DNA from: Hamiltosporidium tvaerminnensis FI-OER-3-3
Lineage: Eukaryota > Fungi > Microsporidia
Length of the DNA stretch: 64,000 nt
NCBI GenBank assembly: GCA_022605425.2
Contig: JAKIMF020000011.1
Coordinates: forward strand, 744,001 to 808,000
Reading direction: 5' to 3'
The notes below the pieces were generated by a model. The model was given only the letters and a program-made list of their open reading frames with translations. It made no database searches and had not been told where the DNA came from. Both the position numbers and the translations under genes were made by a program. Of this stretch, positions 9,353 through 64,000 are shown in pieces (the first letter of the stretch is position 1; the number at the start of each line of letters is the position of its first letter).

Positions 9353-10380
9353 GAAAATCGAATCTGTTAAAATTAAAAGTATTTATTTAAAGTTAAATAT
9401 TTAATTTTTGTGGTTTAAATTTTTCACGTATTTTTATTAAAGTGAAATATGTTATATGCTTGAAATTATATTAAGGCGATTCTGGCTTCGTCATAGGTAA
9501 CTTTAAAACGTTAACTGTATTCCCTGAACATCTAAATTCCTAAACTTTCGCGGAAGATGACACCACGTATTTAATCAAAAAGTTTTGGCAGAACTGGATT
9601 ATGCTTGTTATATGTATGAGATTTCGGATAGAACCTGCCCTTTGGAGACCTCATTTCCCCTCGAACCAACTTCATTTTATGTATTATATTATTCCTGCCC
9701 CGAATTTACGTCAATTAAAATATATTTCGGAGATTTATATTTAGTAAATTCAATGTGGCAATTAAATACCAATAAGTATTCTTTACTTGGGTTTTTTGAC
9801 TTTTCAAAAATATATTCTTTTGTGTTTTCCAAATGGCACGCCTTCTAACCCTAAACAGTAAGATTGGGTTTTATATATTTTTTGGATAATAACGGTTAAG
9901 TTTAATCTTGTTTTATGATCTCGCTAGTAAAAAAATCCTTACATAAACTTTATAAAAAAAACCATTTTTTTGCATTCCTTCTCCTTCATATAATTATCAA
10001 GAAAATCCTCAATCTAGTCTAATTTCCATACTTCCATGAATCAAGAGAATGGTTTCTGTTTTGTACACCCTATTTTTTGTCGTATCCATAATTTAATATG
10101 CTCTCCATTAATTATCATAGGGCGTTTTATGGCATTTGAAGCAAAATAAAGTACAAAAACGCCACAAATAACACAAATTAAAGCTATTTACATGGTTTCA
10201 GAATGTCTCCTAGCTTCCGAAAATTCGTTAAAAAAAGATTAGTAAACAGAGCAGAAAATTTAGAAACTATTTGATTAGGTAATAAGACCGATCATTTATT
10301 TCAAATTAATATCAATTAATTGTATTTTGTGTTCTTTCTTTGTATTAATTTATTTTTTTGCAATTTTTTAATTTATCAAT

Positions 10381-11166
10381 TTTATTTAATAAAATTCTGG
10401 GTTAAAATATTTTTTACCATTTTTACATGTTTTCTTCTACCTCTTTGACCACTTTTGTCTCTTCTTCCAAATCCGACTCTTCATTTATGTTATTGGTCGG
10501 TTCCTCTAAAGTGGTTCCTCCTTGTAAAATAGAGGGGGCTTTATATTTTGGTTTAAAATTTTTGGCACCATCTTCCTCTGTTTTCGCTTCTTTTAAAGGG
10601 GGTATTGGTTCCTCATGCATCTCTGATCTCATAATAACACCCATTGACGCTCTCTCCCAGCTCTCTTCGGCATTTAGTCCTGACTCAAGTCCTCTTCGAC
10701 GATCAAAGGAAATACTTTCGACTGTCTTTTTAAGTACTATAGACTGAATGTATGCTTCTACATTCATGGGTATTTCTAGTCTTTTAAGATGAGATTTATG
10801 GTATTTTGTCACAATACCGTCCCAGGTCATCACATAAGGGATTATCTCAACACTACACTTATAAATAAGGCCCAACTCATTGGCTAGCAGGTCATACTTC
10901 CTAAGTTTTTCAGTTTCAACTATTTGAAGTGAATCTTGGGAAGTGATTCCTACTTCAATGAGTGTTATCTTATTCTTCTTCTTATCTAAAATAAATATGT
11001 CCGGTCTGTTATTCCGAATTTTAACATCAGTTTTAATTCTGGTGTCCACTCTTATCTCTGCATACTCATTATCAAGAATTTCTTGAACTGAGTGGCTCCT
11101 TATTCGTTTTGAAGACTTAAACTTATATCTATTTAGAAGGAGAAGGTGTAGGCATCTAACCACTTC
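10381..11166 (-). mobile_element. 5'-truncated non-LTR retrotransposon (R4/Dong-like, RLE endonuclease end plus 3' UTR)
   Basis: EVVRCLH..., RPDIFILD, LIEVG and KLRKY RLE motifs, nearly identical to the C-terminus of ORF 30162-31973; shared 3' end AACCCAGAATTTTATTAAATAAAA. The ORF-track N-terminus beyond 11166 is flanking DNA. Confidence 0.9.
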
Positions 11167-11216
11167 AAAATTATTTGTATAAAAATATAAATACTTATTA
11201 TTTTTACAAAATAAAT

Positions 11217-13012: not shown

Positions 13013-15568
13013 ATGAGTCATCGTATAAAAATTTGTTTTAACAAGTTGTTTTGTAAGTTTAATGGATCCAAATATATTTTTATAGAAATGTTATATTTGT
13101 GTGGAATAGTTGGTTTGAAATTTGATATATTGATATATGATGAAAATGAATGTATAAAAGGTAATTCCTCTAATGATAAATGTGATATAATAAATGAGAT
13201 GAATGAGAAGTGTAAATATGGAATCGATAGGGATGTTTGTATTGGTAATAATACGTGTGATGCAACGGAGAAAAACGAGAAGTGTAAATATGTAAGCGAC
13301 AGGGATGTTTTTATTGGTAATAATACATGTGATGCAACGGAGAAACGTACATATGTTAGGGCTATGGATGTTTGTAGAGATAATGAGGTATGTGATGCAA
13401 TAAAGGAGACGGAGAAATGTATATATGTGAGCGAAAGTGATGCTATTATGAATTATGACACATTTAAAGAATATTTGAAAGAGAAAAATATTTTAATTGA
13501 GAATATTTTAGTGTGTAATATGGAATATCCAAATAAACGTTTTATTGAGTTTGAATTGCTAGAGAGAAATAATACAAATGTATTTTTCTTTATTGGAAAG
13601 GTACGAAAGAGAGATATAGAAATGTTTAATGGTGTATTACAGGAAGAATTTTTAAATAATTCATGGGAAAATTTATTTGGTGAAGATTTTTTTAAAATAA
13701 TGAATTTTTTAATGATTTTTAAAGCAAAAAAAGGTAAGAAAAATTGTAAATTTTTAGAAGAAATAACTTATACGTTTATAAATGGCAAATATAACAATTA
13801 TTTTGGAAATTTATTGTTTAGTTCGGATTTTGGTCCTTTTAAAATTGATAATTGGTTACTGATTAATATATTTAATTCTGCGTATGTATTATTTTCTATT
13901 AAAAGAAATTCTTGCACTGAAATATTTTCTAACTCATCAGAAAATTCAGATACATTAAATATAAGATATAATGAATCTAATATAAATGATATTGATCTGT
14001 TCATATGTAAAGATTTATTTAAATTTATTTCTGGTGAATACAATGGTTTGAAACTAAGTTACTTCATATTATTTATATTTAAATCTATAAAAATATCTAC
14101 ATGTACTATACTTAAGGATGTAAGTGAAGGCTTATGTAATTATTATAAATTTTCAATTTATTTTCCAGAAGATGTCGAATCGCTTTTTATAAATACAAAA
14201 TATTTTTATACCGAATTCTTAGATTTTTGTATGAATTTTTCATTTTGCAGGAATATTAAAAAGATATATGTAAAATCTGAGTATTTTACGGATGAAATAT
14301 GTATTATTTTACGAAAATTTTTAGGATTGCAAAAAGTAATATTTAATATTCAAAATATGAGATATATTGATATTGATCCAATTTTATTTTTTTCTATTTA
14401 TAGAAAATTAACATATTTGGAAATAAAATGTGTTCATATCGTAGATCCTATATTTCCGCTTTCAAAAATTATTTTAAGTGACAGTTTTGAGCTTAGAATT
14501 CAATGTTACGAATTTGTTACTTGCGAGGATTATAATTTCAGAAAGAAAAAAAGACTATTAAAAAATGTTTTGTCGAATATGAATGTTGAGGTAATGAATT
14601 TTTCTATTAATGATTTAATATCTTCTCTTAAAGAATTTTCAAATTTAAACACTATTAGAGTAAAAAATTATGGAATATCGAAAGTTTGTATTATTTCTAC
14701 TGAAACAATTGATATAATAAAAAAATTGAATGAAATAAGCCTCTACGGATTTTATATTTGTAGCGATTTTTTTAAATGTTGTATAGAATCGCGGAAAATC
14801 ATTCAAATAAGATTAATTTCATGTCTAATTGAATTTACAGAAAAAAATTTGGATTTGAATGAATCTTTAAATATACTAGCCATTCAAACTTGCAAAATAA
14901 ATAATTGCAAGTATTTGTTAAAGAATATATCCAAATTCAAAAAGTTAGTCTGTTTAGAATTTAATAAATGTGGATTATTGAAAGAAAATATTGTATGTTC
15001 CAACAAGGATATAGAAATCTCGAATTTTCAAACTATAAATACTAAAAATGATAATTCATCCGATCTCATACCTTCAATAAAAGAGCTTAAAATAATTCAT
15101 ACGTGTTTATCCTTAGAATATTTGCATTCAAATTTAAATATATTATATCTATCAAAAATATCTCTTGAAAAGGTAGATTTAAGTTTAGAGGATATGAAAA
15201 TATTAAATAGATTCAGATTTCTTAAACATATAATTTTAATAAAAATAAATTTGAAAAGAAATGACATTAAAGATTCAAATGAAAGTATATTTTTATCGAA
15301 TAGTGTTTTAAATTTAAATGTTATTGTTTTTAAAAATATTGTATTAACGAGTAGAGATATCTATTGTATTTCAAAAATGAAAAATTTAGAACATATATCT
15401 TTTACAAATATTAATTTTAGAAAGTATAATGTTTCATTGCGAAATATAAGTCTAAGAGTAATGAAAAATCTTAAATCCATTTGGATTACAAAATGTGATC
15501 TGCTTGATGAAGAATATTGGTATCTCGTTGAGAATTTTTCGGGCAAAAATATTTATCTTTATCGTTGA
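13013..15568 (+). CDS. Leucine-rich-repeat-like protein (851 aa) with N-terminal Cys-containing repeats of about 24 aa
   Basis: Repeated LxxLxI/L motifs (KLTYLEI, NLNTIRV, KLVCLEF, NLEHISF, NLKSIWI); CCCC about 20 bp before the ATG. Confidence 0.75.
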   Translation: MSHRIKICFNKLFCKFNGSKYIFIEMLYLCGIVGLKFDILIYDENECIKGNSSNDKCDIINEMNEKCKYGIDRDVCIGNNTCDATEKNEKCKYVSDRDVFIGNNTCDATEKRTYVRAMDVCRDNEVCDAIKETEKCIYVSESDAIMNYDTFKEYLKEKNILIENILVCNMEYPNKRFIEFELLERNNTNVFFFIGKVRKRDIEMFNGVLQEEFLNNSWENLFGEDFFKIMNFLMIFKAKKGKKNCKFLEEITYTFINGKYNNYFGNLLFSSDFGPFKIDNWLLINIFNSAYVLFSIKRNSCTEIFSNSSENSDTLNIRYNESNINDIDLFICKDLFKFISGEYNGLKLSYFILFIFKSIKISTCTILKDVSEGLCNYYKFSIYFPEDVESLFINTKYFYTEFLDFCMNFSFCRNIKKIYVKSEYFTDEICIILRKFLGLQKVIFNIQNMRYIDIDPILFFSIYRKLTYLEIKCVHIVDPIFPLSKIILSDSFELRIQCYEFVTCEDYNFRKKKRLLKNVLSNMNVEVMNFSINDLISSLKEFSNLNTIRVKNYGISKVCIISTETIDIIKKLNEISLYGFYICSDFFKCCIESRKIIQIRLISCLIEFTEKNLDLNESLNILAIQTCKINNCKYLLKNISKFKKLVCLEFNKCGLLKENIVCSNKDIEISNFQTINTKNDNSSDLIPSIKELKIIHTCLSLEYLHSNLNILYLSKISLEKVDLSLEDMKILNRFRFLKHIILIKINLKRNDIKDSNESIFLSNSVLNLNVIVFKNIVLTSRDIYCISKMKNLEHISFTNINFRKYNVSLRNISLRVMKNLKSIWITKCDLLDEEYWYLVENFSGKNIYLYR

Positions 15569-15847: not shown

Positions 15848-16787
15848 CTAGACGTTAATCCCGTAGAAACGAACATTCTTTTACATTCCTAAGAAAAGAA
15901 ATCCCGAAAATAATCTTAAACTTTACGATCTGAGCCATAATTTCTGAATAATTTTCAATAAAAATTATATTCACCTACCTAGTCTGTTTTTCGTATATTT
16001 TTAAGTCTTTCATTTTTTTGATTATTTGCCGCTTAAGCATTTCCTCAATAAAATTTAGACTATTTTAATAGCATATTCTCCTTCTTTTATTTTATTTACT
16101 TTCAATTTTTCAGAGCTTCAGCTCGGCATTTTATGTTTTGCCTGTTCCCTTTCCACCTATTTCTATTCAATTCTGTCTTTTTTCTCGAAGAAATTTACCT
16201 AGACATTGAATTTTCTTTGTCTGAAAACACTGTTCTTTTAAATAAATGCTGTATTATTTAATTTATTTATTCTATAAATTCTTAATCATTTTTATTAAAA
16301 ATCTTTTGATTTAATCAAATATAACGTTATTTAAAGCTATTCAGCTAAATTTGAGCTATGCAATTATTATTGAGAATAGAAATATATTATACAGAAAAAT
16401 CATAGGATAAGATAATTGTATCATAAAATTTTTTATGCAACTGTAAATTCTTAGAAAATAAATCTTAACAAATAATTTAATTTTTTTTTAAACAGAATAC
16501 TTTAGAAAATGAGAAAAAATATATTTATGTGTTTTCCTCCACGTTAATACAGTCTTAGAAAATATTTTTACAAATTCAATCACTAATATTTTCTCCAACC
16601 AAAGGAATATTTTCAATTGTTTTATGCTCAGTTCTACTCACAATTATTGGTTGTGTAAGTTTTATGAACAAATAGGACGAGACATATCCAAATTGGAGCA
16701 CACTTATTGATGTCTTAAATTCTTTTAACCAATTTAACATTTCGAGGTGAGACGTCGTCGCCGGGACATTCTGAATTATATAAATGA
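15848..16787 (-). mobile_element. Non-autonomous Helitron (deletion derivative, 940 bp)
   Basis: Minus strand starts TCATTTATA (16787) and ends ACGGGATTAACGTCTAG|T (15848). 16445-16787 is homologous to 25642-25987, and the 3' end is homologous to 19844-19866. Confidence 0.8.
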
Positions 16788-16889
16788 CTTAAATTCTTTT
16801 TTCTACCTTTCCTAATACATTTTTTCATATTATAAATAAATTCGATTTTTTATTTAATTAAGAATTTATAATGTTATTTCCTTTATTAA

Positions 16890-17601
16890 GTGGAGGGAGG
16901 ATAACCACATAAAAAACTTTCTGCTTGGCAATGAGTTGTGAAACTGGTGCGAGATCATTGTTTGGATTTTTGGTGGGAATAAAACCACATTACCTCTTCG
17001 GTTATTCTTTGGGAGTTGTTATGAGGAGGAGAGGTCTAAGAAATGGAGAAACTTTTTCTACAAATTTATTTGTAGTTTTTTATGTAACCAGATTGCAGAC
17101 CGCAGCTGAACATGTAGGTAATTGCCATGTAAAAGCATGGAAACCTAGCCTTGCACACTCGGGTTAGAAGACTTAGCGCCTGAGAGATATAAAAACAAAA
17201 ACCATTTAAAGCCAGGAGAGCTAAGTAGCAGGTTATACCTGTTGGTATGACATTGCACTGTCTAGGTGGACCCCTGTAAATCACCGAAATATATCTTAGC
17301 TAGAAGTTTATTAGATTCAGAAAGTGTAGAGTAAGTGGGAATGTTGCATAGTCTTGGGGGAGCCCAGGGGGGCTTCGGCCTTCGATCACACTCCATGCAA
17401 CGGACATTAACGAACCCAGGGCAACTGCTTCGCCTATTTATTAGGTTCTACACACCTGGTAGATGAAAGGCTTTGGGACGTAGGTATCGCAGGGGTTACA
17501 GATGGAGTGTTGGGGTAGCAGTTATTTATGTTAAACCTAGAACTGCGTTAATGTCATGAAAACAAATATAACACTTGCCACTGTTTTAAAAAGATGTGAT
17601 A
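16890..17601 (+). ncRNA. Dispersed structured non-coding repeat, family A, copy 1 (about 700 nt)
   Basis: GC-richer island homologous to 36136-36847 (-), 26150-26752 (+) and 50253-50545 (+); many stems with covariation. Repeat status is certain; RNA function and strand are inferred. Confidence 0.55.
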
Positions 17602-18149
17602 CTTTTAAATAAAGTTTTATTTTAATTTCCTTTATTCATTCACATTTATATTTCTTTTATAAATTTTTTATATTTCAATTTTATTTTTTATAGTTTAAAA
17701 CGAATCATATTTCTATTATTCTAATAAACTGTAAGATGGGAAGAAATTTGGATTTTTTCATTTAAACTCTAATTCTAATTACAATTCAGTGTGTTATAAA
17801 CCCAGGGGTAAATTTAATTTATCATCGTTTTTTCTAAAATTCTAGTTTCAGATTTCTTGATCTTTATATTATTATATATTTATTTTATAAATCTCTGATT
17901 CTTCCCATTAAACAAAATAAATAATTTTAATTCTCTCTTCTTCAAAAATTATAGATTAAAAACCTTTTTATTTGTAAATTTATTAAAAAACTTTTGCATC
18001 TGTGAAATATCAATACCTTCTAACTCATAAAATTTCAATGCTAAATAAATCTATAAAAAAACTCATTTGTAAAAAAATAATAATTTTTAAACTACTCTAT
18101 AAACTAAAATATTATTTTGAATTCTTTATATTCTAAAATCTATAAAATA

Positions 18150-19843: not shown

Positions 19844-22800
19844 CTAGCCGTTAAACCCGTGGAAACAGACTCAATTATATATCAAAAAATCTTAAATATG
19901 AAGTGAATTAAAGCATAATATAGAGATTTGCTTTTATCTTCTTTATATTGTTAAAATTCCTGCTTATTGAGCATATTTTAAAAATTAGAAAAGGTTTTCA
20001 TTTCTATAAGAAGCAGTTAAGAATATTGAAAATAATTGAAGAGAACCAAGGAATTTTAATTTACAAAGATATTGCATATATATTCTACTTCGAACCAAAA
20101 ATATTAAAAAATTACATAAGTAATTAAAGTCATTTATTTATCTATGAATTTCTGTTTTTGAAAATAAATTTTATCAAACCTGGAACAAATTAATTTTTAT
20201 ATTGTTTACATAAAAAGAATAAGATTTTAGACTTCTAAAATATTTTCATAAAAAAAAATAGGACTTGTAACTTATATTTACTCAGTTTTCAAAAACCGCT
20301 TTATACACAACATTTTTTGTAAATATTTTGTCACTTCCAGGCAAAATTTTACCTTGCTCAGCCGTATCTTTAATATAAACTTTAACATCATTTAAACTTC
20401 TAACCCTAGAAAAGGCAACATAGAGTTGCCTATGGCCAAAATCAGGTGTTGGTAGAAAAATACCAACCTTGTATAGTGTTTGACCTTGAGCTTTGTTTAT
20501 TATCATAGCGAAAGCCAACCTGATTGGGAATTGTCTTCGTTTAAGTTGAAATGGAAGACCTGCATCTGATGTCAAATCGATTCTTTGAAGAAATATATAA
20601 TCTTAATTTTCACAATCGGTAAAATTTAGCCAAAATGAGATTCGGCTTCATTTCACATACAATTAGCCTAGTCCCGTTAAAAAACCCGCTTTCTGTATTT
20701 AAATTTCTAAGAAGCATAATAATAGCGCCTTTTTGAAGATAAAGAGCGTGAAGAGGTGTTCCAAAAGGTGTAAGAGAATTTAAAAACTCAATAGAATAAT
20801 TAGTTACATCATCAGTATCATCACTTATAAGACTATCTGTACTTAAATAAGTTTTTTCCTCGCCCTAAAGAATATCAAAAACACTTTGATTGATTTTATC
20901 AACTTCTTCATTTGTATGCGTTAGAATTACCTTCTTGGAAAATTTATAGATCGTATTTACGAATTGTACTTCGCCAAAAATATCTTTAGAAATCATATGA
21001 GATGGGATTTCTATTAAGGTTTCTTCTAAACCATCAGTATTCATAAGCTTCCATTGCCAAGTTTAATGAGCCATTCACTATACGGCTTGTCTTTTGCCTG
21101 CATATTGTTACGGAGTTTCAATATTTTAAAGTCATTCCACAAAGAGCAATTCTTCAAGCTGGATTGAACAACATCTGATGCTTGAGCTCCGGGTATCACG
21201 AGCAAACACTGTCTATAATCACCACCCTTAATTATTACTTTTCCACCAAAACTTACTCGCGATTTATATTGAATGTCTCTCAATAATCTATCTATACTTT
21301 GCAGGGCGAAAGCTGGAGCCATGGTAGCTTCATCTTAAATAATTAGAAAAGAATCATGAATTTTTCGCCCTTCGCTCGAGTTTGGTTTAACACCACAAAC
21401 AGACGTTTCATTAAGAATCAGTGGAACTTTAAATCTTGAATGATATGTTCTTCCTTTATGTAGTAACTTTGCTGCTATTCCTCTTGAGGCAACTAAAATA
21501 TTAGTTTTTCACTTCGTTTTATTGTATAATACAATGCTTTATAAAGATAAGTTTTTCCGCTACCTCCTAGTCCGTCTAAAAAAAAACTTTTTTCGTTATT
21601 GCTGTTATTTAATGTGGTCATAATTTGTTCGAAAGCAATTCTTTGCTCTTCATTTAATGTTTCTTCATAGTTAAAATTTTCTTCTTCATCAAATGTAGCA
21701 CATAGTGGTAGAAGACTAGTCAGAGGGTCTTCTAATCCAAAATCTCTACAGCGTTTTCCGTGTGTATTCAAAATCCTACTTATATTATTCAAAGCATAAC
21801 TAACAGATAATTCGAAAAATTCCTCAACAGGATGGCGGTGAAAATGGCAATAATCTTCGATAAGATTATCTTTGTGATTTGTCATAAATTTTGAAATGTC
21901 AGTAACATAAGTAAAAAGATATATATATGCGAATAAATCTCTTATATTTTTCGGTATTTTCATTGTTACTGCATCATTTAAAGTTTCGTTCCAAACGTTT
22001 TTATCAGTTGTCAACCCTTTTGCTCTAGCTGCTTCAAAATAATTTTTATAAGTTTTTCCGTCCACTGTCCTCAAATATTCGAAAGAAATGGCTCACGGTA
22101 TATGCAATAACAAAATTCTTAAGTAATATAACTCAGAATTCATATACTGATAGTTAAGATTCTTCCGATACAGTTTTTTGCGTTTCTGATTCGACGTAGC
22201 CACATGTGGTCTTTCAGACAAAGTTGTCGGGGATTTCGACATATTTCAATTGACAGTACTGACTATATTCCCTATTTAGTTTGAATCAAGCTATATAAGT
22301 GCTGTCTATATGTATAGATATAGATTCTTTTATTCTTTGTTCATCTGATGAAAAAATATATTTTGTTCTCCTTCAAGATGAACTGCTAGTCTTTTAACAG
22401 TGTGGCTTTGTTCATGTGTAGGAAATTTAAAAATTCACCAGGCGGCTTCATGAGGACTAATATACCCTGAATCTATATAAGTTTTTATTTCGTCGAATTG
22501 AAGACTATTATTTGCGCGATCGGATCCTTTATAAGCATAGCCAAATAGTTATTTTACAGTTTTAAATGAAGCACATATATCAACATTTATATGGCATTTA
22601 TATTTCGGAAAGATATGGATTATAAGGAACCACCCAGCTATTATCAACATGATTTTCCCCAATTTTAACTGGATTCCTTTTTCGTCTACGATAAAGAGGG
22701 TATCTGTCAGATTTTTAAACAATGTATTCTTGAAATTTTTTTGGAATTTATTTACTACATATATTTTCAACCATGCAAGGTGAATATGACAAAAATCCAC

Positions 22801-25800
22801 AGGGTCCATGGATCATATTTTTAGTTATTATACTAAATAATCCAGGGTGTGTATTTTTATCATGAATTTCTGCCCAGACCATCTTATCAATTAATGCTGC
22901 ATCGCGTGGCTTAGAATTGCTTCTAAAGTTATCAAAATATGAGCATGAGGTAATCCTCTATTTTGAAATTCTATGACATAGCAATATGCTTTTACTTTTC
23001 CGAAAATTTTATTTTTTATAATATCTGCCATTAAGGCCTTATGTTTTTCTCTAAAGACTCTATCTACTAAATCAGGCCTATTCTCACGTTTTTCATTTGC
23101 ATCTAGATTTTCAGATATTTCAGCATAGTTTGGATTGCAAGTCATAGTAATGAACAAATCGGGTTTCCCATACTTTCTAACTATTGCCATAGCATCTTGA
23201 TATTTCTGTTTCATGTTTCGAGGACTGCTTGAAAATGTTAAAGGCAAAATTATTCTCTTTCCTACTGGAATGTCTTATTTAGCATCTTGATTCTCAATCT
23301 ACTAAATTAAATCATTATATTTTTCGGCTCGCAGCTCTTTTTGATCTGTTCGAGCATAATTCAAATCATTTGCTTCAGTTTTGCAATATGCCTTTACTAC
23401 ATACTGTTAAGTCAATCTCCCGGCTCTTAAAAGGGGGTTGAATTCATCTCATAATTGCAAGTAATAGGAATAATATTGTTTTAGCGTAACATTTTTATGA
23501 GCATGGCGCTTTCTCTTGCATTATAAAGTTTTATGTTAACCCCGCAAGGTTGTTTTCCATATAGAAACAACAGTGGATAAGATAAAGCATGTGGATTTAT
23601 ATGTCTGTGGCCTATACGGCGAGTTTTACTAATTAGAGTATCTTATGGCCTAAGATGCATCAATAAGTCCTTATCAATAAGAGGTTACCCGTTTTTACCC
23701 AAGAAAACCATGGCTACTTCATTACGGTGTTGTGCATTATATCATCTCGGATCAGTTTTTCTATTTTGCACTATTTCCATTACAATTTGTGTTTCTATGT
23801 TAGGCTTTAAATATTTTTGGGCTTCTTCAACTCCATACATCATTTTGAAAGCACACGCAAAAGGATTAGATTTCATAACATCAGATATTTTTTCCATTAG
23901 TCTTAAGTAACACGTTTTATTTGCTGGCTCGTTTATCCTTTCGTTATTTGCTACATCTTCATCAAAAATGTATAATTGGGCATATTGTCTGCTATGATTT
24001 TTGTCTGGATGCAGCGTACCCGAAATATGATACATTTGTCCATGAATACGGTAACAAAATGGACCGGACCCTTGAGGAATTTTAATATTTGCTCCAATCG
24101 AGACAAAAGCAAAAGCACTATTAGATGATCTTATATTTTTTGAAAAATTTAAATGAATCGGCATCCTCGCCGCTCATTAATTTTTTAAGCGTCTCGTATA
24201 TTTTAATACTTGGTAAGTTAATAGATTTTTGATTGCAACATATATTAAAGAGTTTTGATGCTGGTCTTTAACTTTGAAAAATTTAGCTTGGCAGCTGTGG
24301 CAGGTTTTTTCTAGTCTGCCAAGTTGATGTTTAAATATTTGTTTTATATTACATTCTGTCAATTCCTTTAATGCAATACATAAAGAGTGCTCTGTAATAA
24401 GTCGTTCTCTAGAAATTCTATGTGAATTCTTATTTCATCGTGTTTTCCTGCTAGAATTTTCAGCTGTTCTATTTTTCCTTAAATCTTGTAGCCTTAGTCT
24501 TTCTAAATGTCTCTCTTCGTCTGATTTATTTTCTCTCGAAGCTTTAAGTTGTGTTAACTTTCCCTTCCTCCTTTTTACTTATTTATTTTCTCTAAGATCC
24601 CTCATCCTTAAAATTTCTGCATTCCTCGCCTCCTCAGATTTATTTTCTCTTAGAGCTTTTAGCCGAGCTATTCGGATATTCTCTCTTCTTCTGATATATT
24701 CTCTCCCGATATTTTAAGTCGCAATAATTCGGAATTTTTTTCATCTTCTGATCTATTTGCTTTGAATGTTTCAAGGTGCTCTAGATTTTTATGTCTGTTT
24801 TGTGCTGAAAGATTTTTTCTTTTAGATCAATCAGTTTCTGCTTTTTTTTGTTTAGCTTTTAAGACATGTGCAGATTTTTCTTCGTCTGAATAAACTTGCT
24901 TTTTTCGTGGCATTATGTAGCACTTAGTGAGGTAATTATATAACTTTATATTTTCTGGAAGCGTTTTAGTTTAAACAAATGTTATTTTTTTAGTATATTA
25001 ATCGAAACAAAAATATTTAATGGTTGCTTTTCGGTTCATCATACTCTCTATGGCTATATTCAAGTCCTGGTTAGATCTCTTAATCGCCTTATGAAAAAAA
25101 ACTTCATTAGGTTAGTGCTACCAACAACCGAGGATTTTATGTTTTAATTTAATTAAGTTATAGATCATGAAAAATATAAACTATCCTTAACTTTATAGAT
25201 TTATTGCGTACTAATAAGATTTTTTTAAAGTAATATTAAATGAAAATTCGCAAAAAACATTTATCTCATTCGTCAGCTAGCTTGGATTTACTGCTTTTTT
25301 TGACTTATAATATTCTTTATTTTGCATTTTTTGTTTATATTTCGAGACAAAGCTTCATTTCTATTCATATAGTTTCGATACTTTGGATATATAAATATTA
25401 CATTTGATTACTTACTGAGGCCTTCTCATCACATTAATGTGTGTTTAGAGCAAGTATTCTTTAGGTTCATGAATTATTTTATATCCACTCGTTCCTAATT
25501 CCGTAGTATTTTCCTTCGATTCGAAATTTTTCTTCGTGTATAATAAAAGATTTTAATAATTTTTGTGTACTATTGAGTGAATAAATCATCCCATTAGCTA
25601 AAGTTTAAATATATGCATTCATTTATAGTTAATCTATACTTAAATTCTTAGAAAATAAATCTTAACAAAATAATTTAATTTTTTTTTAAACAGAATACTT
25701 TAGAAAAATAAAGTTGAATATATTTTGTTTTTCTTAAATATTAACACAGTCTAGAAAAGATTTTTACAATTTTTATTATTTCAAATATTTTTTTGAAACA

Positions 25801-25987
25801 ATAGAATTTTTTTAATCTTTTTATGTTCACTTCTACTCACTATTATTGGTTGTGTAAGATTTATGAACAAATAGAAAGAAACATATCTTAATTGGAGCAT
25901 TCTTATTGGTGTCTTATATTTTTTTAACCAATCAAAGATTTCGAGGTGAGTCGTCGTCGTCGGAACATTACTGAATTGTATAAATGA
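19844..25987 (-). mobile_element. Full-length decayed Helitron (6.1 kb)
   Basis: A|TC 5' end at 25987 and CTAG|T 3' end at 19844 with a degenerate subterminal hairpin CCCGT-GGAA-AC; contains Rep-PIF1 helicase fragments. Confidence 0.9.
20282..24913 (-). pseudogene. Helitron Rep/PIF1 helicase pseudogene (many stops and frameshifts)
   Basis: Ordered fragments: ATG CCA CGA AAA at 24913 with charged repeats; IHGQMYH and YAQLYI; SPRNMKQKYQDAMAIVRKYGKPDLFITMTCNP; IEFQNRGLPHAHIL (HUH); DGLGGSGKT (Walker A); GGDYRQCL; RRQFPIRLAFAMIINKAQGQTL; QLYVAFSRV. Confidence 0.93.
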
Positions 25988-26149
25988 TAATCAGTAAAGT
26001 TAAAATTCTTTAAGCAAATCTCTAGAAAGTAGTAGAAAACTATCTTTACGTTTTTAAATACAATCTATAATATTTTTAAAGTTCGCAATTAAACATATAA
26101 TTTGAATTAAAAAAAATATAAGCAAAAATATATTTCTTATCTTATAGTA

Positions 26150-26752
26150 TGGTGAGAATAAAACCAAAGTTCGTTTTCAGTTGTTCTGTTGGTGTTTTTG
26201 CAAAGAGAATATATTATAGTAGAAGATATTTTTTTTTACTCAGAAGTTTTAATTTTTTATGTAATTATATTAAAAATTGTGAATGAACATTTGTGTAAGT
26301 GGCTATAAAAGAGTCAAACCTAGCCTTAATTGATTTGCTTAGATTACTTTGAGGCAATGAGATACAAAAGTAAAAACATTTGTAGAGCCGAAATGCTAAG
26401 CTGGGATTGTTCTCAGTTGGTATGGTATTTCACTTTCTAGGTGAACCAAATGTAAGTCACCGAGATATATCTTAGCTGAAAGTTTAGAAGGGTTCAGAAT
26501 GTGTTGAGTAAGTGAATGCTGAATATTCTTGGTGAGGCCGAAGCAGGTTGTGACCTACGATCGAACACCATGGAACAAGCATTAACAAACTCTGGATAGC
26601 CACCTGCTCATGCAATGAAGTTTTAAACTTCTCTAACATGAAAATATTTGGGATATAAGTATCGAAGAGCTACTGATTGTGTTTTTGTGGAACAATTATC
26701 AATTTTACACTTAGAACTCCACTAAGGTCATAAAAACAAATAACTTGGCTAC
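26150..26752 (+). ncRNA. Family A structured repeat, diverged copy 3 (lacks first about 80 nt)
   Basis: Colinear blocks AAACCTAGCCTT, GCTAAG, CTAGGTG, TCACCGA.ATATATCTTAGCT, GAGTAAGTG, TAGAACT and AAAACAAATA match copy 1. Confidence 0.5.
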
Positions 26753-27941
26753 ATTAATGAAAAAAAATTTATATATATCAAATAAGATTTCTTTAAATGT
26801 AAGCTATTTGACAAATACTTTAATAATATTAAAATCTATACTCGGTTTCAGTGGTTTATAGGCAAATATTTTGTTTATTGTTTTTTTTTGTGAATTATAT
26901 TTAATTGCGTAGAGACTTAAGAAGAATTAAAAATCCTAATCATTTGCGCCGTCATAGGCAATGAAAACGATTTTGAAACATTTTAGAATTTAAGCATCAT
27001 ATTATGACTTAATAATTAGCGAATTTACAAATAAATAAAGGAGAAAATGAGGTGGAAATAAGAAAAAATCTTAGCAATAAGCAAAAATAAGAAGTAAATT
27101 TCGTGTTCGAAAGCGCGAGTCTTCGTTCAAATCAGAATTTGAAATGTTAAAGCATACTAATGCTTTATGAGATGCACATTTTATCGACACAAGTTGGCAA
27201 AATTACTAAGTATAGAACACTTAAGAATAATTAGAAACAGAAATGTTTCACAATAGTAGCATTGAAAGATTTTTGTTGAAAATTTTGTTAGTTTACCAAT
27301 ATTTTTGGATGTAATTTGGATTTGGCAAAGATACTTTATAAATTTAAAAAGGCGAAATTGTATTTTATTAAATTATTGGAGAAGTGGCTGTAAATAAAAG
27401 ATCATTAGCAAGAAAAGTAAGAAAAATACGAAAATGTAAATTTATTGGTTTCTTTGGTTGATTGTATTATGAAGTAATTTATGGAATAAACAAGAAATCG
27501 TACATCTTTAGATTGAGCAGAAGATCTTTTTAGGGAATATTACGTTGAAAAAATCATTTGTTAGAAAAATGAAATAAAAAAATTTTTGATTTATAGTTTT
27601 GGTTGGGATGTATAAATTTCATAACAAATTTGAGCTGGTTGCAAATTTATATGAAATTATCGAACTAAGTATAAATTTATTTTCCATACAAAGAATCATA
27701 AAGTAGATTATACATATAATGAAAGGAGAATCACGGTTTTTTTGATATAAGCATGTTTTTTAGCTATACTAATTACAAGTTCGTTATTTTTGTTAATTAT
27801 AACAAAATATCTTATCTATAACAGTTTGGGTGCAGAAGATAAGAAAAATAGACTTTGGAACAAATTTATATTTTTAAACAAATTTCATTGGTGAAATGAA
27901 AAAAGGAGTAATTTTTAATTAGAAAGTTTCTTTGACCCAGA

Positions 27942-29471: not shown

Positions 29472-30124
29472 ATAAAGATCTTTAGAAGTATTCTTTAAAA
29501 TTTTATTATATTTTGGATTTTTTTTAATTTTCGTTAAATAAACCGTTACGATCATCATTTGAGCACGCAGTTATTAGAAAATCAAATTTTTTTAATTTTG
29601 ATTTCGAATAATTCCGCTAAAATAATTTCATTAATAAATGTTTTATTATAGTTTAAACAAGCCAAAAACATCTTATCCTTTGTCTATATATTTTAGTCAT
29701 ATATTATTCATTGATTAAAATTATATTTGATTTTAATTTCTTTGTAATATATTTTTTTGCAATTTATTATGGATTAAAGAAATATTAAAAACACAATCTT
29801 ATAATTTTCTAATCATTTGTTAGCAAACTCATACTTTGGTGTAGAATCGTAAATTGTCAAAGTTTGTTTTGAATTGAAGTAAATTCGGTTCAATATTACA
29901 AATAGCCAAAAATATAATAACTTAAATTATAAAAATATTTTTTGATAATCTGAAAGAATTTTTTTATTTTAGCATATTATTTATTTCAGATTTTATAAAA
30001 AAAATAAATCTATATACAAAAAAAATCTGAATTAAACATATTTTTAAATATATATAAGTACTTAAACTTCTAAACTCACTTTTACAAAAAATAAATATTA
30101 GATAATAAATTTTAGATCATTTTA

Positions 30125-32084
30125 TTTAATAAAATTCTGGGTTAACAAATTTTTCTCTTTTCTAAATAATTCTTTCCACCATTTCAACCACTTCTATCTC
30201 TTCCTCCAACTCCAACTCTTCATTTGTATTAGTTGTTGGTTCCTTTGCCGTGGTTATACCATCCAAAATAAGGGGTAAAATATTTTTTGTATTTTCCTTT
30301 TTAACATCATCTTCCTCGTTGTCTACTTGCTTTAAAGGGGGTATTGGTTGTTTATGTATCTCAGCTCCTAAAATAACACTTAATGATGCTCTCTCCCAGC
30401 TCTCCTCGGCATTTGGACCAGACTCAAGTCCTCTTCGTCGATCAAAAGAAATTGTTTCGACTGTCTTCTTGAGTACTATGGATTGTATATATGCCTCTAC
30501 ATTCATGGGTATTTGCAGTCTCTTAACATACGTCTTATGGTATTTTGTCACAATACCGTCCCAGGTCATCACATAAGGAATTATCTCTACGCTGCATTTA
30601 TAAATAAGACCTAACTCATTTGCTAATAGGTCATACTTCCTAAGCTTCTCTGTTTCAACTATTTGAAGAGAGTCTTGGGATGTGATTCCTACTTCAATGA
30701 GGGTTATCCTATTCTGTCTCTTGTCTAAAATAAATATATCTGGTCTGTTACACCGAATCTTGACATCAGTTTTTATTCTGGTGTCCACTCTTATCTCTGC
30801 ATATTCGTTATCAAGAATTTCTTGAACTGAGTGGCTTCTAATTCGTTTCGAAGACTTAAACTTATATTTATTCAGCAAGAGTAAATGAATACATCGTACC
30901 ACTTCATTATGTCGTCTAGAATAGTCATGACCAAGCATTTTTTCACATCTCGTTGCTAAGTGATCAACTGTTTTCCTAGACTGGTTGCAGTGTTGACACA
31001 TACCTTCTGCACCCCAGAATACATTTCTATCCTGGATATAACAGAACACTGCTTCATCACGTGGTCTTACACTTCCTTTCTTTAACCATCTTGAGGTGTC
31101 ATTTACACTTACCAGCTCGTTATTTCTAGCGCTATATAACTTTGAATGTAGTTTTCGGTTTTTGATTTCGTTATATAGGTTAGCATGTTGAGCTTCTTCC
31201 AATTTCTTTTTTGTGACTTCCTCTTCCAACCCGTATTTTATTTTTAAAAAGTTTCTAATTAGTGAAAGGTGGGTTTTATTATTATTCTCAACCTTTAGGA
31301 TTGCTGCTCTTCTGGTCGATGTATCTTTATGTTTTTCCAGACAATCCAAAAGTTGCAAAAGCATATGTTCGCTTTTGAACTTGACACTATGTAAACCTCT
31401 TCCAAGTTCTTTACGTGGAAGGTATAGACGTTCTTTGCATCCTGGGCGTAGATGTATTTTGTTCTTTACTAACACTGCACGCACCGCATCATCTAACTTA
31501 GAGAAGTCAGCCGGTTCTAGTCGGAGTACACCTATATGATAGTTTAGTAAAGAAATTGCATGTTGATTAATGGCTTGAAATAAATTTCTTGCATTTAATC
31601 TCGTGCGACAAAGTCTTTCTACTCGTGCTATAAGTTTAGTCTGTACTTCCTCAAACGACTTACTTGTTGGAATTCCTCTGCTATCTTCTATAATTCCAAG
31701 GTATTTATAAACACCTATTCCTTCAAGAAGAGTAGCAGTATCTTCACAACATGGATCATTAGTGGCTGACTTCTCTTTGTTAATTTCCAATTCTATATTA
31801 TTCATAAACTTTTTAACCTCCTCCGTCATTTCTTCCAATGTTTGTCCATCTTCGGCAAGGAGCTTAAGATCATCAATAAACAAGAGATGATTAGTCGCGT
31901 GGGATTCTGCATCTGTCTTTATTGTCACTTTTGTGTATTTCTCATTAAGCTTTGGCTCAATGGATCCATACACAACACAAACAATAATGGTGACAAACTA
32001 TCTCCTTGCAGAATCCCTCTATCAATCTTCTTACTCATGATTTTTTCAGGCCCTACTGATGTATCAATTTTCCATTTTGATATA
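30125..32084 (-). mobile_element. 5'-truncated R4/Dong-like non-LTR retrotransposon (RT, CCHC, RLE) with 13-bp TSD
   Basis: RGILQGDSLSPLLFVLCMDPL (separate frame, 1-nt frameshift near 31955), FIDDLKL, YKYLG, LYLPRKELGRGL, CQHC..H...C, RRHNEVV, RPD, IEV. Flanked by TTAGATCATTTTA at 30112-30124 and 32085-32097. Confidence 0.93.
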
Positions 32085-35645: not shown

Positions 35646-36135
35646 AAAGCCGTTATAAATTTTATTTAAATACTTTTTTACGTCCAAATTTACCAAAAAG
35701 AGAAAAATTAATTATATTTTTATTAAAATATTTTATAATTTAATCTTCCATTAGAAAACCAATGAAACCCTTCTCAATATTTTTTTTCCAAAAAAAATTA
35801 TATTTTTGATTTTTATCTTCTGATAAAAAGAAAAATACCAGCAATTTTTCTAATTTAAAACGTTTAATCTATTCGATTAAAATATTTTATTTCTTCTAAG
35901 AACACAAATTTGATTTTAATTGATTCGAATGTTTTAATTACTTACTGATTTAATTTAAATCTTCAAGATTTATAAATTTTTATTTTTTTTGCTATTTTTC
36001 TTGCTAAGAAAGCATTTCTATTATTTTTTTTATAATTTATTGTAAAAATATAATAGATGATCCTCAACTTTTGATTAGACCGTAATATGCACACAAGCTA
36101 TTTTTTAATACCTAGAAAATATTTTTATTTAATAT

Positions 36136-36847
36136 TATCACATCTTTTTAAAATAGTGGCAAGTGTTATATTTGTTTTAATGACATTAATGCAGTTCTAG
36201 GTTTAACATAAATAACTGCTAACCCAAAACTCCATCAGTAACCCCTGCAATACCTACGTCCCAAAACCTTTCATTTACCAAGTATGTAGAACCTAATGAA
36301 TAGGCGAGGCAGTTGCCGGAGTTCGTTAATGTCCGTTACATGGAGTGTGATCGAAGGAAGAAGCCACCCTGGGCTTCCTTAAGACTATGCAGCATTCCCA
36401 GTTACTCTACACTTTCTGAGGCCAATAAACTTATAGCTAAGATATATTTCACAGACTTAGACGGGTCCACCTAGACAGTGCAATGTCATACTAACAGGTA
36501 TAACCTGCTACTTAGCTCTCTCAGATTTTAATGGCTTTTGTTTTTATATCTCCCAAGCCTAAGTCTTCTAATCCTAGTGAGCAAGGCTAGGTTTCCATGC
36601 TTTTACATGGAAATTACCTACAAATTCAGCTGCGGTCTGCAATCTGGTTACGTAAAAAACATCAAATAAATTCGTAGAAAAAGTTTCTCCATTTCGTAGA
36701 CTTCTCCTCCTCTTAACAATTCCCATGGAACAACCTAAGATGTAGTGTGGTTTTATTGCCATCAAAAATCCAAACAATGATCTCATACCAGTTTCACACA
36801 CTCATTGCCAAGCAGAAAGTTTTTTATGTGGTTATCATTTCTCCACT
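36136..36847 (-). ncRNA. Family A structured repeat, copy 2 (inverted)
   Basis: Reverse complement is colinear and highly similar to 16890-17601 over its full length. Confidence 0.55.
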
Positions 36848-39171: not shown

Positions 39172-39590
39172 GGTAGAGAGAATAAGCCACATTAAAAATT
39201 ATCTTTTGACAGTGAGTGTGTAAAATAAATGTGATAATCACTTTACATCTTAGTGGGATATAAAACACATCGGATCTATGAGAAAATCAACTATAATCTC
39301 GAGACAACAGATTAACGAATATAAATGGAAGAATAACGAAATGTCTCAAAAACAAAGATCTATGTGGAAATCGGACTAAGAGTAATGGAACTTAAAAGGT
39401 TGAGATTTGGCATGGAAAATAGAAGAACCTGTGAATGTTGAAATGTTTTTATTCGGAAAACTGAGTTCATGTGAAAGAAAAATAGAAACCGGAAATACCA
39501 GAACATGCCCAGCGACAGAATATGTTAGGTTCATTTGTTCATCCTCGGCACCGAAAGATATGAGGGAATTGGAATAAGTATGTAAGTATT
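39172..39590 (+). repeat. Family B non-coding repeat, long form; 5' about 110 nt related to family A
   Basis: CCACATT.AAAA..., TGAGT.TGT, GGATATAAA.CACA, GGATCTAT, CAACAGATTAA, ATTTGTTCATCCTCG and AAGTATGTAAGTAT are shared with the reverse complement of 50558-50786. Confidence 0.7.
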
Positions 39591-40962
39591 TAAATGATTT
39601 AAAGAATAGGAAGACAAAGTAAAAATTTACTGCAAAATACAAAAAAAGCGCAAAAAATTATAAAATATTCTTAAACAAAGAAATTCTATCCAGCGAAAAA
39701 CCTGGCTTTTATATAAACAAAACATATATCAATCCAAATCTGTATAATGTAGCCCTATATAAGGTTTAACATAATGGCCTAGGTCCGCTCATGAGTTCAT
39801 CGTAGAATTACCTGATATACTGACTTCCCCTTCTTATACTTAATTCTCTGTCTCAAACAATCTAATGGTAAGAAAAACCGCATATTGGATAATTTAAGAA
39901 GAAGGTTTTAAATAGCTCATTTTTCGTACCTTACATAGAAGAATCTGAAAAAATGAATGCTTCATATCTGTGCTTCTATCCGTTCTCACAATTTTATTAA
40001 GGATGCCAAAAACAAGCTCAATCATGGATTTTGTTAAATTGCAGATCTCTGAGGTACTGCTTCCCCAACTTGTAATAAAATTAGCAACCAAGAGGGCAGA
40101 AGAGAACCAGAGGCGATGTATAGTTATAATGGTGTATTTTATTTATGTTGCACGGCAAATCATACTCTCAAATAGCCTGAAGAGAAGTAAATGTTTGAAA
40201 TCAAGGCAATCTCGGAAATTTTTCGATGATAGAATAGTTTCTAAGTCAAATTGGCTAGCTTGATTTATTGATAACAAAGTTTCTATAACATAATTCAAAT
40301 AGTCTATGATTTGCTAACTCTCATTTATGAAGATATTACATTTAGCACGTATAATTCGTGCAGTGCAGGTATAATATTCAAAGCAGTAGAAAGATTAGTT
40401 TTGATTTAAATGAAAGCAACAAATATAATTGTAACCCGCTGACATTATATTTTCAGTAATCTTTTTGAAAAATTAAATGTGCGCAATAATCTTAAAATTC
40501 CTTAAAAAAAGATTTTGAGTCGGTTTGACTTCAATAGCATAAAAAGTTTTGTTCTAAGCTTCGACCAAATGAATGAATATCTGTTTGTTAATCTTAAAAA
40601 ACCAACAATAGAAAAAACTACAAGCGATTCTAAGAACTACAGCTACATGCTTGAGCTGTCTAGTCTTAAATAATTATTAATGTTATCTTCTCCAAAGAGT
40701 TTGATTAATAGTGGATTTAGATGAAATTTTACAGTTTTTGGTATATAAAATTATAAAGAATACAAATTTAACTTTTTTATGACACCTTTTGAGATTTTTA
40801 GCTTTGCATTGTTTTGCGCCATTCTTCTTTCGCTTGATGTATTTTAAATACTTATAAGTGGCTTTTTCTTATAATTTCGTCTTAATATTAATATTTTACC
40901 TAATATCATAGATCCATATCAGATTAACCATGAGTATGTTATAAAAAACTTATATTTTAGAC

Positions 40963-50252: not shown

Positions 50253-50545
50253 TGGACGGAAGAATATAACCCAACAAAAAAGAATCTGTTGGGCAATGAG
50301 CATGTGAAATCAACCGCAAAGGATTGCATGGGTTTTTATTAGGTAGGAACATAAAATTTCTGGTTGCTCCATAAGAATTTTATGAAGAAAAAGATGTCTA
50401 CAAAGTGATAATAAAATTTCTATAAACTTAATTTGTGTCTTTTATGTAAGTAAATTCAAAACCATGGATGGTCATGTAGGTAATTGCTATGTAAAAGCCT
50501 GGAAACATTGTCTAAATCACTCGGGTTAGAAAAATATGCGCTTGC
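50253..50545 (+). repeat. Family A partial copy 4 (5' about 290 nt, diverged)
   Basis: GGCAATGAG..TGTGAAA, CATGTAGGTAATTGC.ATGTAAAAGC.TGGAAAC and CACTCGGGTTAGAA match copy 1. Confidence 0.8.
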
Positions 50546-50557
50546 GAAGTCCAAAAT

Positions 50558-50786
50558 AACATACTTACATACTTTTTCCAGTTCTCTTCCACCTTTCAGT
50601 TTCGAGGATGAACAAATACAAGTTTTCATTTGTTTCTTTTAATCTGTTGTAATTCGGGATTATAGGAGATCGGCTTATAGATCCAGTGTGGTTTATATCC
50701 TACTAAAATGTCAAAAATTATTTTCACACCAATTCTACATACTCATTGCTAGGTATATAGTTTTCAATGTGGTCATCTTCCTTCTT
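50558..50786 (-). repeat. Family B repeat, short form
   Basis: Reverse complement matches both ends of 39172-39590 with about 200 nt missing internally. Confidence 0.7.
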
Positions 50787-51752
50787 CTCGAAATGCATCA
50801 ATACCATGAAATAATATAAAATGTACCATTTCTCATAAAGTGTAATATTCATTGAATTAAACTTAATCAGTAAGAATTATAGATTTTATTGAGTAAGCAG
50901 AATATATTCTTACGTTCCTTTGTTGATAAAAAAATGATTTCAGATTTTCTTTGTACGTACAAGCTTAAATCCATTTTTTAGTTTCATAATATAGAAATTC
51001 CTATGTATTCAATATTTAAAAAATTAATTTAAATAAATTGTTGAAGATATTTATATTTTTGCCAAATAGTTCTACATATTTAAATATAAATTTAGATTAT
51101 ATATCTTCTACGATCAAAATATATTATCCGATTAAGATATAATAATTATCTTTATTTTGATCTCTCAAATCTTCATCATTTAGAAAACAAATATAATCTT
51201 TAATTAAAGTTTAGGTTTGTAAATTATTCCAAACTAAAATTTTTCTTCCTAAAAAATATAAAGGCTAAAGTTTATAATTCATATCAAGGGAATTATTAGA
51301 TTTATGCACAAAAGGATTTTTTTGAATAAATTAACCACCATTTCAATGATGGTTTGTATATTAAATCCTATATAAATAGAAAATCAGGAAAAATAGTCTA
51401 AGAAGGAAATTTCATATTTTACTTCAAATTTCCATTTTATTGTCTAAAAGACATGAACTTTATAAAAGCTTTTATAAAAAGAGTACTGTATGTGTTAAAA
51501 TTCAATATTTGTATTTCGTAGAAACTTAGCATTGTTTAATTGGTTTGAAAAACTTTATGTATAAATTCTTCCGACCAGGGTCATCAAAAAACGACTTTTA
51601 AATATTTTAATTATAAATCTTCTTTAGATTTCTTTATAAATTCATCCTCGTCAGATTCATATAAAAAAAAGAAATATTTTAATTATAAATCTTATTTTCT
51701 ACTTCAGTTATTTTGTTTTTATATAAAATGTGGAAAAATTGAAGGGTCCGAA

Positions 51753-62500: not shown

Positions 62501-63300
62501 TTTATGGTTCTTCATAAAAATTAATAATTCAGCTATGGGTCTATTCTTCGTTCAGTTTTGCTTGCTTGAAATATGGTTTTGTAGCCAGATTGTTCGCCTT
62601 TATTGAATATTTCCAATTTAAAAGAATATAGACCATAAGATAGTAGACAAGCACGATTTATACAGTTTTACAAATCTAATAACAAAAAGTAGTATTAATC
62701 ATAAATCAACCATAGTGCCATAAATATTCTGTAAATTGTTCGGGTTTGGTTAACGGTATGCAAAAATCAAAGCTTCGGGTGGTTTTAAAATCAGTAAATA
62801 AAGAAAGATTTAGAACAAATTAATCATATTTTCAGCATGTTATAATGCAGCTTCTAGATAAATAACTAGACTATGCAAGGAAAGTCTTCTGCGTTTCCAA
62901 GGAATTTATTATAATAATAGTTCCCTTAAATATATTTATGGAAGACTATGGCCTTTTTCTACTGCAATTTGTATAATAAATGCTTTAACTCAGTATCACT
63001 AAATATAAATATCATGTTTATTGCATAGCTCGCTCCTTTCCTACGGATGGAACACAATGCAACGATAAATCAAAGCTTCGCCAGATTCTAGGCTTTCCAA
63101 AGAAATTTTCTTTAGATTGGTTAGGTTGTCAGCCTCACGCAAACATTCCAAACGAAAGATACAGTGTGCACATAACCAGGATCAAACATGGTTTTTCGGA
63201 AGCAAATTCCGATATTCCCACCACTAGATCATTGGCATATAAACATCATATCTTTGCACAAAGGTAGCACATGTTATATTTTGAAATAGCATTGATGCTT
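59600..63300 (-). mobile_element. Probable highly decayed Ty3/gypsy LTR-retrotransposon remnant
   Basis: Short minus-strand fragments in gag-RT-RNaseH-IN order: CYLC (about 63265), HTAFL (about 62200), KLKFL (about 61945), LIIKTD (about 61490), VDY..KW (about 60110), AY..SAFEI.G (about 59650). Each is weak; no LTRs located. Confidence 0.35.
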
Positions 63301-64000
63301 TTCTTTGTTTTACATACCTAACTTTCGAAGAACTGTATCGACATCGTTTGAATCCGAAAGCCCAATTCTTTTCATAAAAACCATGTCTAGAATCCAAAAA
63401 ATAACCCGCACAGTATTCGTTTGTTTCTACTAACCCCTAGAGCATTTCAGGGCTAAACACATCTTCTTATTTTAGGCTTCAGCAGCATCTCTATTTAACC
63501 AAAAATTTTGCAACCCTACTATTTTCTCACACATAAAGGTGTTCTTCTCAGAAGTTCAATTCTATTATTAATGTTATGACTAAGGTTTCCTCTCCTAGCT
63601 GTTTAAAGAGTGTTTTTTGTTTTTGTACTCTTTTAATGCTAAATCGTTTGCCCCTTGTTATACAAAATAGATTTGCACGCTTTTACCCGACAAATATTAA
63701 CATTTTCAACCGTTGATTAAATAAAGATTATAAAAAACTGCGAAATATTAATTTAGAAAAATATTTATTATTTTTAGACCTCTAACTTCACATATAAATC
63801 TCCGCAGGAAATAAAATGCAGAGTTTTTTTCATCAGACCCAAAATTTGAACACGTAAGATTCACTTTAATTTTTTGAAATTTCTTCTCGAAAATATATTT
63901 TTCGATTTGGTTATCTCTTTTCGATCAATTGTCCGAAATAAATCTCGAATTTAGGAGATTTGTGCCTTTTCAAGGTAGAATGAGCTAATGAAATATAATT

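Follow-up and report, generated by a model that had tools for sequence, protein, structure and literature searches.

What kind of element is a multicopy, apparently non-coding repeat of about 700 nt that carries dense pairing potential? The question is raised by a 64,000-nt stretch of the Hamiltosporidium tvaerminnensis FI-OER-3-3 genome (contig JAKIMF020000011.1, positions 744,001 to 808,000), termed here the window. An earlier note described the repeat, family A, as a pseudoknotted RNA spreading as a mobile unit, whether as a ribozyme-bearing non-autonomous retroelement, a guide or scaffold RNA, or a viral or viroid-like RNA domain. The reading favored here, at a probability of roughly 0.65, is that family A is a non-autonomous retroposon copied via RNA by the reverse transcriptase (RT) of a LINE of this genome, most likely of the R4/Dong type.

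Copies of family A and its sister family

The window is about 25% G+C, and its genes are sparse, intronless, and use the standard code. Two long open reading frames (13013-15568 and 44141-46504, the latter with one in-frame stop at ~45704-45706) have no Pfam match and resemble leucine-rich-repeat-type secreted proteins.

Family A is represented by two full-length copies: copy 1 (c1), 737 bp and 41% G+C at 16888..17624 on the + strand, and copy 2 (c2), 725 bp at 36123..36847 on the − strand, which are ~89-89.7% identical. At 725-737 bp, the full-length element is a short (<1 kb) interspersed repeat as SINEBase defines the size. Copy 3 (c3; 26138..26769, +) is diverged, with ~68% identity to c1 in the search, and its head is decayed or lost. 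Copy 4 (c4) spans 50254..50865 (+) and consists of a 315-nt 5ʹ part (50254-50565) and a 3ʹ end at ~50786-50865. All four copies in the earlier note lie where it had placed them, with matches at 16889-17614 (+) for c1, 36847-36124 (−) for c2, 26149-26744 (+) for c3, and 50254-50557 (+) for c4, and the family is commoner than it reported: two further, strongly decayed copies, c5 (63238..63926, −) and c6 (9408..10109, −), bring the count in the window to six. A profile search matched c5 at 63851-63240 (−) with an E of 2.6e-10 and c6 at 9870-9415 (−) with an E of 7e-5, and the reversed window gave zero matches at E<=10. Copies other than c1 and c2 are 47-64% identical in the multiple alignment. 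Compared with c1, each of the five other copies has G>A as its most frequent substitution, and C>T and G>T also stand out. Together, the six copies lie on both strands and occupy 3870 of the 64,000 bases (~6%); extrapolated from six per 64 kb to 21.6 Mb, the family would number ~2000 copies.

A 350-bp repeat (16444-16790 and 25641-25987, 83% identical) lies ~100 nt upstream of c1 and c3. Either it belongs to a repeat family of its own, or it was part of a segmental duplication and later underwent conversion; it is better conserved than the element itself. Because c1 and c3 have this repeat in common, at least one copy of family A may stem from DNA-level duplication. In c6, positions 9845-9854 (−), homologous to 17158-17167, read TTAGGGTTAG where c1 and c4 have CTCGGGTTAG. 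The telomeres of H. tvaerminnensis are reported to consist of TTAGGG repeats (PMC10542269), and the complement of the c6 TTAGGG would be a template of the telomerase type, although it lies on the other strand from the retroposed RNA; the likeness is probably due to chance.

Family A has a sister, family B, with the same head and a different body. The common head (16889..16996, +; ~110 nt) contains a 5ʹ GTGG/CCAC hairpin, an A-run, and the GCAATGAGT block. Family B is present as a copy at 39172..39595 (+), as a 3ʹ fragment at 54680-54577 (−), and as an inverted, internally shortened copy (50786-50557, −) that replaces the middle ~330 nt of c4.

Target-site duplications and element ends

The two full-length copies are each flanked by direct repeats. 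Those of c1 are exact and 12 bp long (16876..16887 and 17625..17636, +), and those of c2 are 15 bp long with two mismatches (36848-36862 and 36108-36122). The homology of c1 and c2 begins at 16889/36847, and the direct repeats abut that 5ʹ end, whereas the flanks of the two copies are unrelated (scores of 28 and 29 vs a null of 36.9±7.9). The homology boundary was used to fix the 5ʹ ends of the duplications, and in scoring, the left repeat was constrained to end no more than 2 nt from the 5ʹ end of the element. Under this constraint, c1 scores 15, c2 scores 13, and a LINE in the same window scores 13; 31 of 3000 random A+T-rich pairs reach 13 and 9 of 3000 reach 14. The probability that c1 and c2 both show such duplications by chance is ~0.003 x 0.01. 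A clear duplication is confined to these two of the five family A copies scored, with chance-level scores for c3 (9), c5 (5), c6 (6), and the family B copy (5); c4 gave no duplication when scored before its 3ʹ end was located. Such scores are expected for old copies, yet they limit the retroposon claim.

That family A is instead a DNA-level repeat, such as a non-autonomous DNA transposon, a Helitron derivative, a solo LTR, or a segmental duplication, whose flanking repeats arose by chance in A+T-rich DNA, is very unlikely. Besides their low joint chance, the duplications are not of one length and exceed the target-site duplications of 4-6 bp made by LTR elements; Helitrons are not known to make any, and terminal inverted repeats are absent from family A (best scores 12-13). 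What speaks for such an origin is the upstream sequence common to c1 and c3, a decayed Helitron with Rep and Pif1 helicase fragments in the window (~20285-23274, −), and the reported abundance of MITEs, at 56-61% of Hamiltosporidium mobilomes (PMC7313128 supplement 5).

Near the 3ʹ end of c1 is TAAATAAA (17606..17613, +), which contains the poly(A)-signal hexamer. The same octamer, found in the window once per 2064 strand-bases, also lies close to the 3ʹ end of c2 and to each of the two LINE 3ʹ ends in the window. These eight A+T bases are the only 3ʹ likeness of family A to the LINEs, and the AACCC motif that precedes them in both LINE ends is absent from family A.

Co-resident LINEs and a chimeric protein

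The candidate partner of family A is a 5ʹ-truncated LINE at 30125..32084 (−), which starts abruptly within its RT domain. It contains an RT, a CCHC motif, and a PD..E restriction-like endonuclease motif, the layout of the R4/Dong type. The LINE is flanked by a 13-bp duplication (32085-32097 and 30112-30124) and has thus made the same kind of insertion as c1 and c2. Its RT (30162-31997) has its closest relatives in H. tvaerminnensis and H. magnivora, with up to 88% identity, and a second LINE 3ʹ fragment in the window (10379..11167, −) is 82% identical to this LINE. Two more heavily decayed R4/Dong LINE remnants are present at 37399-37637 (+) and at ~62426-60938 (−), the latter downstream of c5 and including an N-terminal region. 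Dong-R4 is reported as the main LINE class in Hamiltosporidium, making up 12-24% of the mobilomes (PMC7313128 supplement 5). RTE-BovB LINEs, reported as the second class (7-10% of the mobilome; PMC7313128), are a possible alternative partner.

Family A and LINE sequence are joined in P0123, a hypothetical (predicted) protein of H. magnivora. When the longest frame of c1 was compared with 1.84 billion proteins, three matches were obtained, P0123 and two repetitive proteins; the latter two were judged to be chance. Residues 1-28 of P0123 match the sense-frame translation of 17009..17092 (+) with 22 of 28 identical, and residues 27-116 match the LINE coding region with 73 of 90 identical, on the same strand as the family A part. 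Only the first ~200 nt of family A precede the LINE. This arrangement is that of the template-switch chimeras described in PMC2104539 and PMC3414825, but the protein would look no different had part of the unit been deleted internally or had a LINE landed in a copy of family A. A further, weak search returned no second chimera of family A and a LINE.

Relatives of the LINE were located at 2 loci in genome contigs, 0 in viral contigs, and 45 in metagenomes. In one of these (L007), positions 61-115, in the 5ʹ flank, repeat the 3ʹ end of the same LINE relative in inverted orientation. Two others (L001 and L002) are microsporidian-type LINE sequences in contigs of bacterial metagenome-assembled genomes (Clostridium and Nitrospira), which is likely binning contamination.

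The P0123 junction also bears on the possibility that family A is itself LINE-derived, either as an extended 5ʹ untranslated region or as a derivative with an internal deletion, like the R2 SIDEs of Drosophila, that now moves alone. Family A lies 5ʹ of the LINE coding sequence and on the same strand in P0123, and c5, which has no TAAATAAA tail, is followed on the same strand by a decayed LINE whose projected start (~62426) lies ~810 nt beyond the end of the copy. The head common to families A and B, together with the internally shortened copies of family B, fits such a derivation, as do two short colinear, same-frame likenesses to the LINE protein (E 0.3-0.4). Those two likenesses, considered as traces of a decayed coding origin, failed the profile test, in which six-frame translations of 11 element pieces gave no match to a profile built from 120 LINE proteins (best E 0.27). 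No homology to the LINE was detected at the DNA level either. Across 48 fetched loci, of which 47 are LINE loci, the best match of the family A DNA profile was only E 2.9, and the family A DNA pattern was found in none of the 48. The near-complete relatives L004 and L007 have A+T-rich sequence without the head motif directly before the open reading frame. As for c5, at one copy per 10 kb a neighbor no more than 1 kb upstream is not rare (an estimated ~6%). A LINE-derived origin is therefore unlikely.

The duplications of c1 and c2, their unrelated flanks, a co-resident LINE with a 13-bp duplication, and P0123 instead point to a retroposon inserted by target-primed reverse transcription. Hence, the mobile-unit and non-autonomous-retroelement part of the earlier proposal is supported by the duplications and the LINE junction; its ribozyme-bearing, guide or scaffold RNA, and viral or viroid-like variants are without support, as the searches below indicate for the first and last.

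Coding capacity, transcription, and database searches

The longest stop-free frame of family A is 84 amino acids; Pfam gave no match, and no hidden protein was detected. ARAGORN found no tRNA gene in family A, and the tRNA, 5S, and 7SL families of Rfam gave no match at E<=5-10 in c1-c4. With the A and B box consensus given in PMC5499648, a B box was found in 0 of 8 element pieces and an A box only once, in the middle of c5. Since family A has no tRNA gene, no B box, no A box in c1-c4, and internal T5-T6 runs, transcription by RNA polymerase (Pol) III is unlikely. The absence of boxes is no proof against Pol III, because the U6, P, and MRP genes of microsporidia are also reported to have no recognizable boxes (PMC5499648). 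The putative poly(A) signal AATAAA at the 3ʹ end suggests transcription by Pol II.

The earlier note recognized no rRNA, tRNA, group I/II intron, or hammerhead pattern in family A. In Rfam, no family reaches its gathering score anywhere in the window, and RNase P, MRP, SRP, U3, snRNA, 5S, and rRNA families have no match in c1-c4. One weak match recurs, to the Rfam family DUF805 on the 5ʹ head (16885-16945; E 2.4 and 2.0 in c1 and c2); it scores 18 bits vs the 51 needed, and no paper on this family was found. Likenesses noted by eye to group I intron P7, RNase P P4/CR-V, 5S loop E, an 11-nt tetraloop receptor, and group II domain 5 served as leads only; they have no Rfam support and are not kept across copies.

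Beyond the Rfam result, a descriptor of HDV-like ribozymes, which a divergent ribozyme could escape, found none in 8 pieces on both strands, and the hammerhead core pattern occurs once, only in c5. The suggestion of a ribozyme-bearing element thus has no support, and nothing indicates catalysis by family A RNA. A viral or viroid-like origin fares no better. The core pattern of family A has 0 matches in viral and metagenome contigs, and the sole viral match to the head pattern lies within an apparent coding sequence unlike the element beyond the pattern and was judged to be chance.

Pairing and covariation

All 13 helices listed in the earlier note are present in c1, although the CTACAAAT helix, given as 8 bp, leaves a 2-nt loop and can therefore be at most 7 bp. 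Whole-length folding z scores, from 20 shuffles each, are -1.98 for c1 sense, -0.46 for c1 antisense, -1.99 for c2, and -1.23 for c3. Results for 150-nt windows are mixed, and a LINE open reading frame used as control also reaches -2.9. Copy 1 contains 25 Watson-Crick helices of at least 7 bp vs 14.6±3.9 in shuffled sequence, with 0 of 100 shuffles reaching 25; five of six helix counts, all except this one, are not significant.

The statement that c3 changes its sequence and keeps its pairing holds in part. The three compensations quoted for it are visible, but 32 of 88 pairs are broken. The breaks extend to both crossing helices of pseudoknot 2: GACATTAACG/CGTTAATGTC loses 6 of 10 pairs and AACTGCT/AGCAGTT loses 5 of 7. 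By a pair-count tool, 34 of 90 listed pairs have double changes vs 20.5±3.2 (0 of 500 shuffles), falling to 13-17 when the structure is slid; this shuffle ignores relatedness, and both controls favor a structure read from c1. In a second test, substitutions were permuted within each copy. Here, c3 has 12 double changes vs 7.0±2.4 expected (p ~0.04, and p 0.011 vs decoy helices), whereas c4-c7 are at chance (24 vs 22.3±4.2), as is the total for all copies (36 vs 29.8±4.9, p 0.13). Copy 2 has 0 double changes and 11 of 90 pairs broken. Moreover, in c3, c5, and c6, conservation is no higher at paired than at unpaired positions, and a screen of all 253 c1 helices gives 11 at p<=0.05, which is the chance expectation. 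Because the covariation excess is confined to c3, the source of the claim, and the crossing helices of pseudoknot 2 are broken there, the double pseudoknot is not established.

Other tests gave similarly modest signals. RNAalifold on five copies yields a weak consensus of -16.9 kcal/mol with a covariation term of +0.8. A shift-tolerant helix test found 16 common helices vs 10.5±3.0 (reached by 2 of 60), and a segment test found 6 vs 2.8 (reached by 2 of 50). With 300 permutations, the segment test was reached by 24/300 for c1-c3, 43/300 for the antisense strand, and 184/300 for c2-c3, and only two of nine pairwise segment tests have p<0.1. Alternative helices with double changes are offered by c3 at 17367-73/17427-33 (three doubles) and 17420-24/17575-79, and these fall short of significance at 300 permutations. 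A GAAA loop at 17460-17473 is present in all five copies that cover it (c1, c2, c3, c5, and c6); there, both bases of the pair 17462/17471 differ between c1 and c2 (G-C to A-U), and this pair is outside the helices listed earlier. Overall, a pseudoknotted fold of family A is weakly supported. It is plausible that the master RNA folds in some way, and the strand that would fold is also the one retroposed.

These observations bear on another possibility, that the copies are retro-pseudogenes of one functional, structured host RNA gene whose transcripts the LINE machinery often captures, as has been proposed for the WEIRD RNA in Magnaporthe. A host RNA gene would fit the 41% G+C, the G>C skew of the sense strand in all copies, the better folding of the sense strand, the GAAA loop of the five copies that cover it, the double changes in c3, and the excess in the pair-count tool; additionally, LINE chimeras are reported as typical of stable RNAs (PMC2104539, PMC3414825). 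It is nevertheless quite unlikely. None of the RNase P, MRP, SRP, U3, snRNA, 5S, or rRNA families matches c1-c4, the within-copy total is not significant and vanishes into chance once c2 and c3 are set aside, the all-helix screen is at chance, and a 6% density together with a sister family bearing the same head fits a self-propagating family better.

Comparison with known retroposons

The retroposon reading places family A beside several non-autonomous elements, of which the closest in its working are the EhSINEs of Entamoeba. The likeness is one of features and not a sequence comparison. EhSINEs have ~70-80 nt of their 3ʹ end in common with their LINE. Unlike them, family A has only TAAATAAA in common with its presumed LINE, and it is G+C-richer than its genome. 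EhSINE1 and EhSINE2 of Entamoeba histolytica, which move with EhLINE1, are like family A non-coding and dispersed in the A+T-rich intergenic DNA of a parasite; both have variable target-site duplications and a partner LINE whose restriction-like endonuclease has no fixed target. EhSINEs are reported as 450-700 bp long with duplications of 6-29 bp (PMC2996970, PMC3716655, PMC1635306). They differ from family A in having internal repeats of 20-27 bp and in having been shown to be transcribed and polymorphic between strains.

The R2 and R2/R1 SIDEs of Drosophila are likewise non-autonomous, not of Pol III type, and moved by a non-LTR element, and compensatory changes are described within their structured 5ʹ part; R2 is also reported to jump onto small RNAs as templates (PMC3414825). 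SIDEs have an HDV-like ribozyme (PMC3414825), of which the descriptor search found none in family A. They are also 64-87% identical to the ends of their partner and insert in 28S rDNA, whereas family A is dispersed and has no measurable identity to the LINE. In the MINE of Magnaporthe, a fungal non-coding RNA, WEIRD, is fused 5ʹ of a 5ʹ-truncated LINE, which matches P0123, and the chimeras have duplications of 10-20 bp; WEIRD is 1.1 kb and described only as fused and full length, whereas family A is mostly found alone (PMC2104539).

Family A also resembles the SINEs of SINEBase in being short and interspersed, in its head-body-tail modules, in a head common between families, and in its presumed LINE dependence (PMC3531059). 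The head of a SINEBase SINE, however, is at least 60% identical to tRNA, 5S, or 7SL and is accompanied by an internal Pol III promoter (PMC3531059); neither was detected in family A. Without a tRNA, 5S, or 7SL head and without Pol III boxes, family A is therefore not a SINE by the SINEBase definition; it works like the EhSINEs.

A proposed route of amplification

As a retroposon, family A would be transcribed from a master copy by Pol II on the c1 + strand, perhaps from a promoter in the head common to families A and B. The master RNA probably folds somewhat, which may aid its stability or its capture by the LINE protein. That protein would bind the RNA and nick A+T-rich DNA, reverse transcription would be primed at the 3ʹ end of the RNA, and a staggered second nick would give rise to the target-site duplication. 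Inserted copies would then decay towards A+T. A bolder version is doubtful: family A would come from a large undescribed structured RNA, ribozyme-like or a microsporidian housekeeping RNA, of Pol II type, that hijacks the R4/Dong LINE without copying its 3ʹ end and whose subfamilies keep their fold by compensatory change.

Implications for microsporidian genomes

Family A appears to be undescribed for microsporidia. No report of SINE-like elements in these organisms was found within a limited coverage of the literature, and the repeat libraries of PMC10542269 and PMC4202319 may list it by a different name. SINEs do not appear as a class in the table of the mobilomes of 47 microsporidia (PMC7313128 supplement 5), and ~25% of the H. 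tvaerminnensis genome is reported as unclassified repeat (PMC10542269). If the structured-RNA reading is true, no SINE-like element would have been described in microsporidia before family A, and it would make up a large share of their unclassified repeats. Moreover, family A would be the second case, after Entamoeba, of a restriction-like-endonuclease LINE with a non-Pol III passenger. A LINE-dependent family that occupies 6% of the window would also account for some of the expansion of the larger microsporidian genomes.
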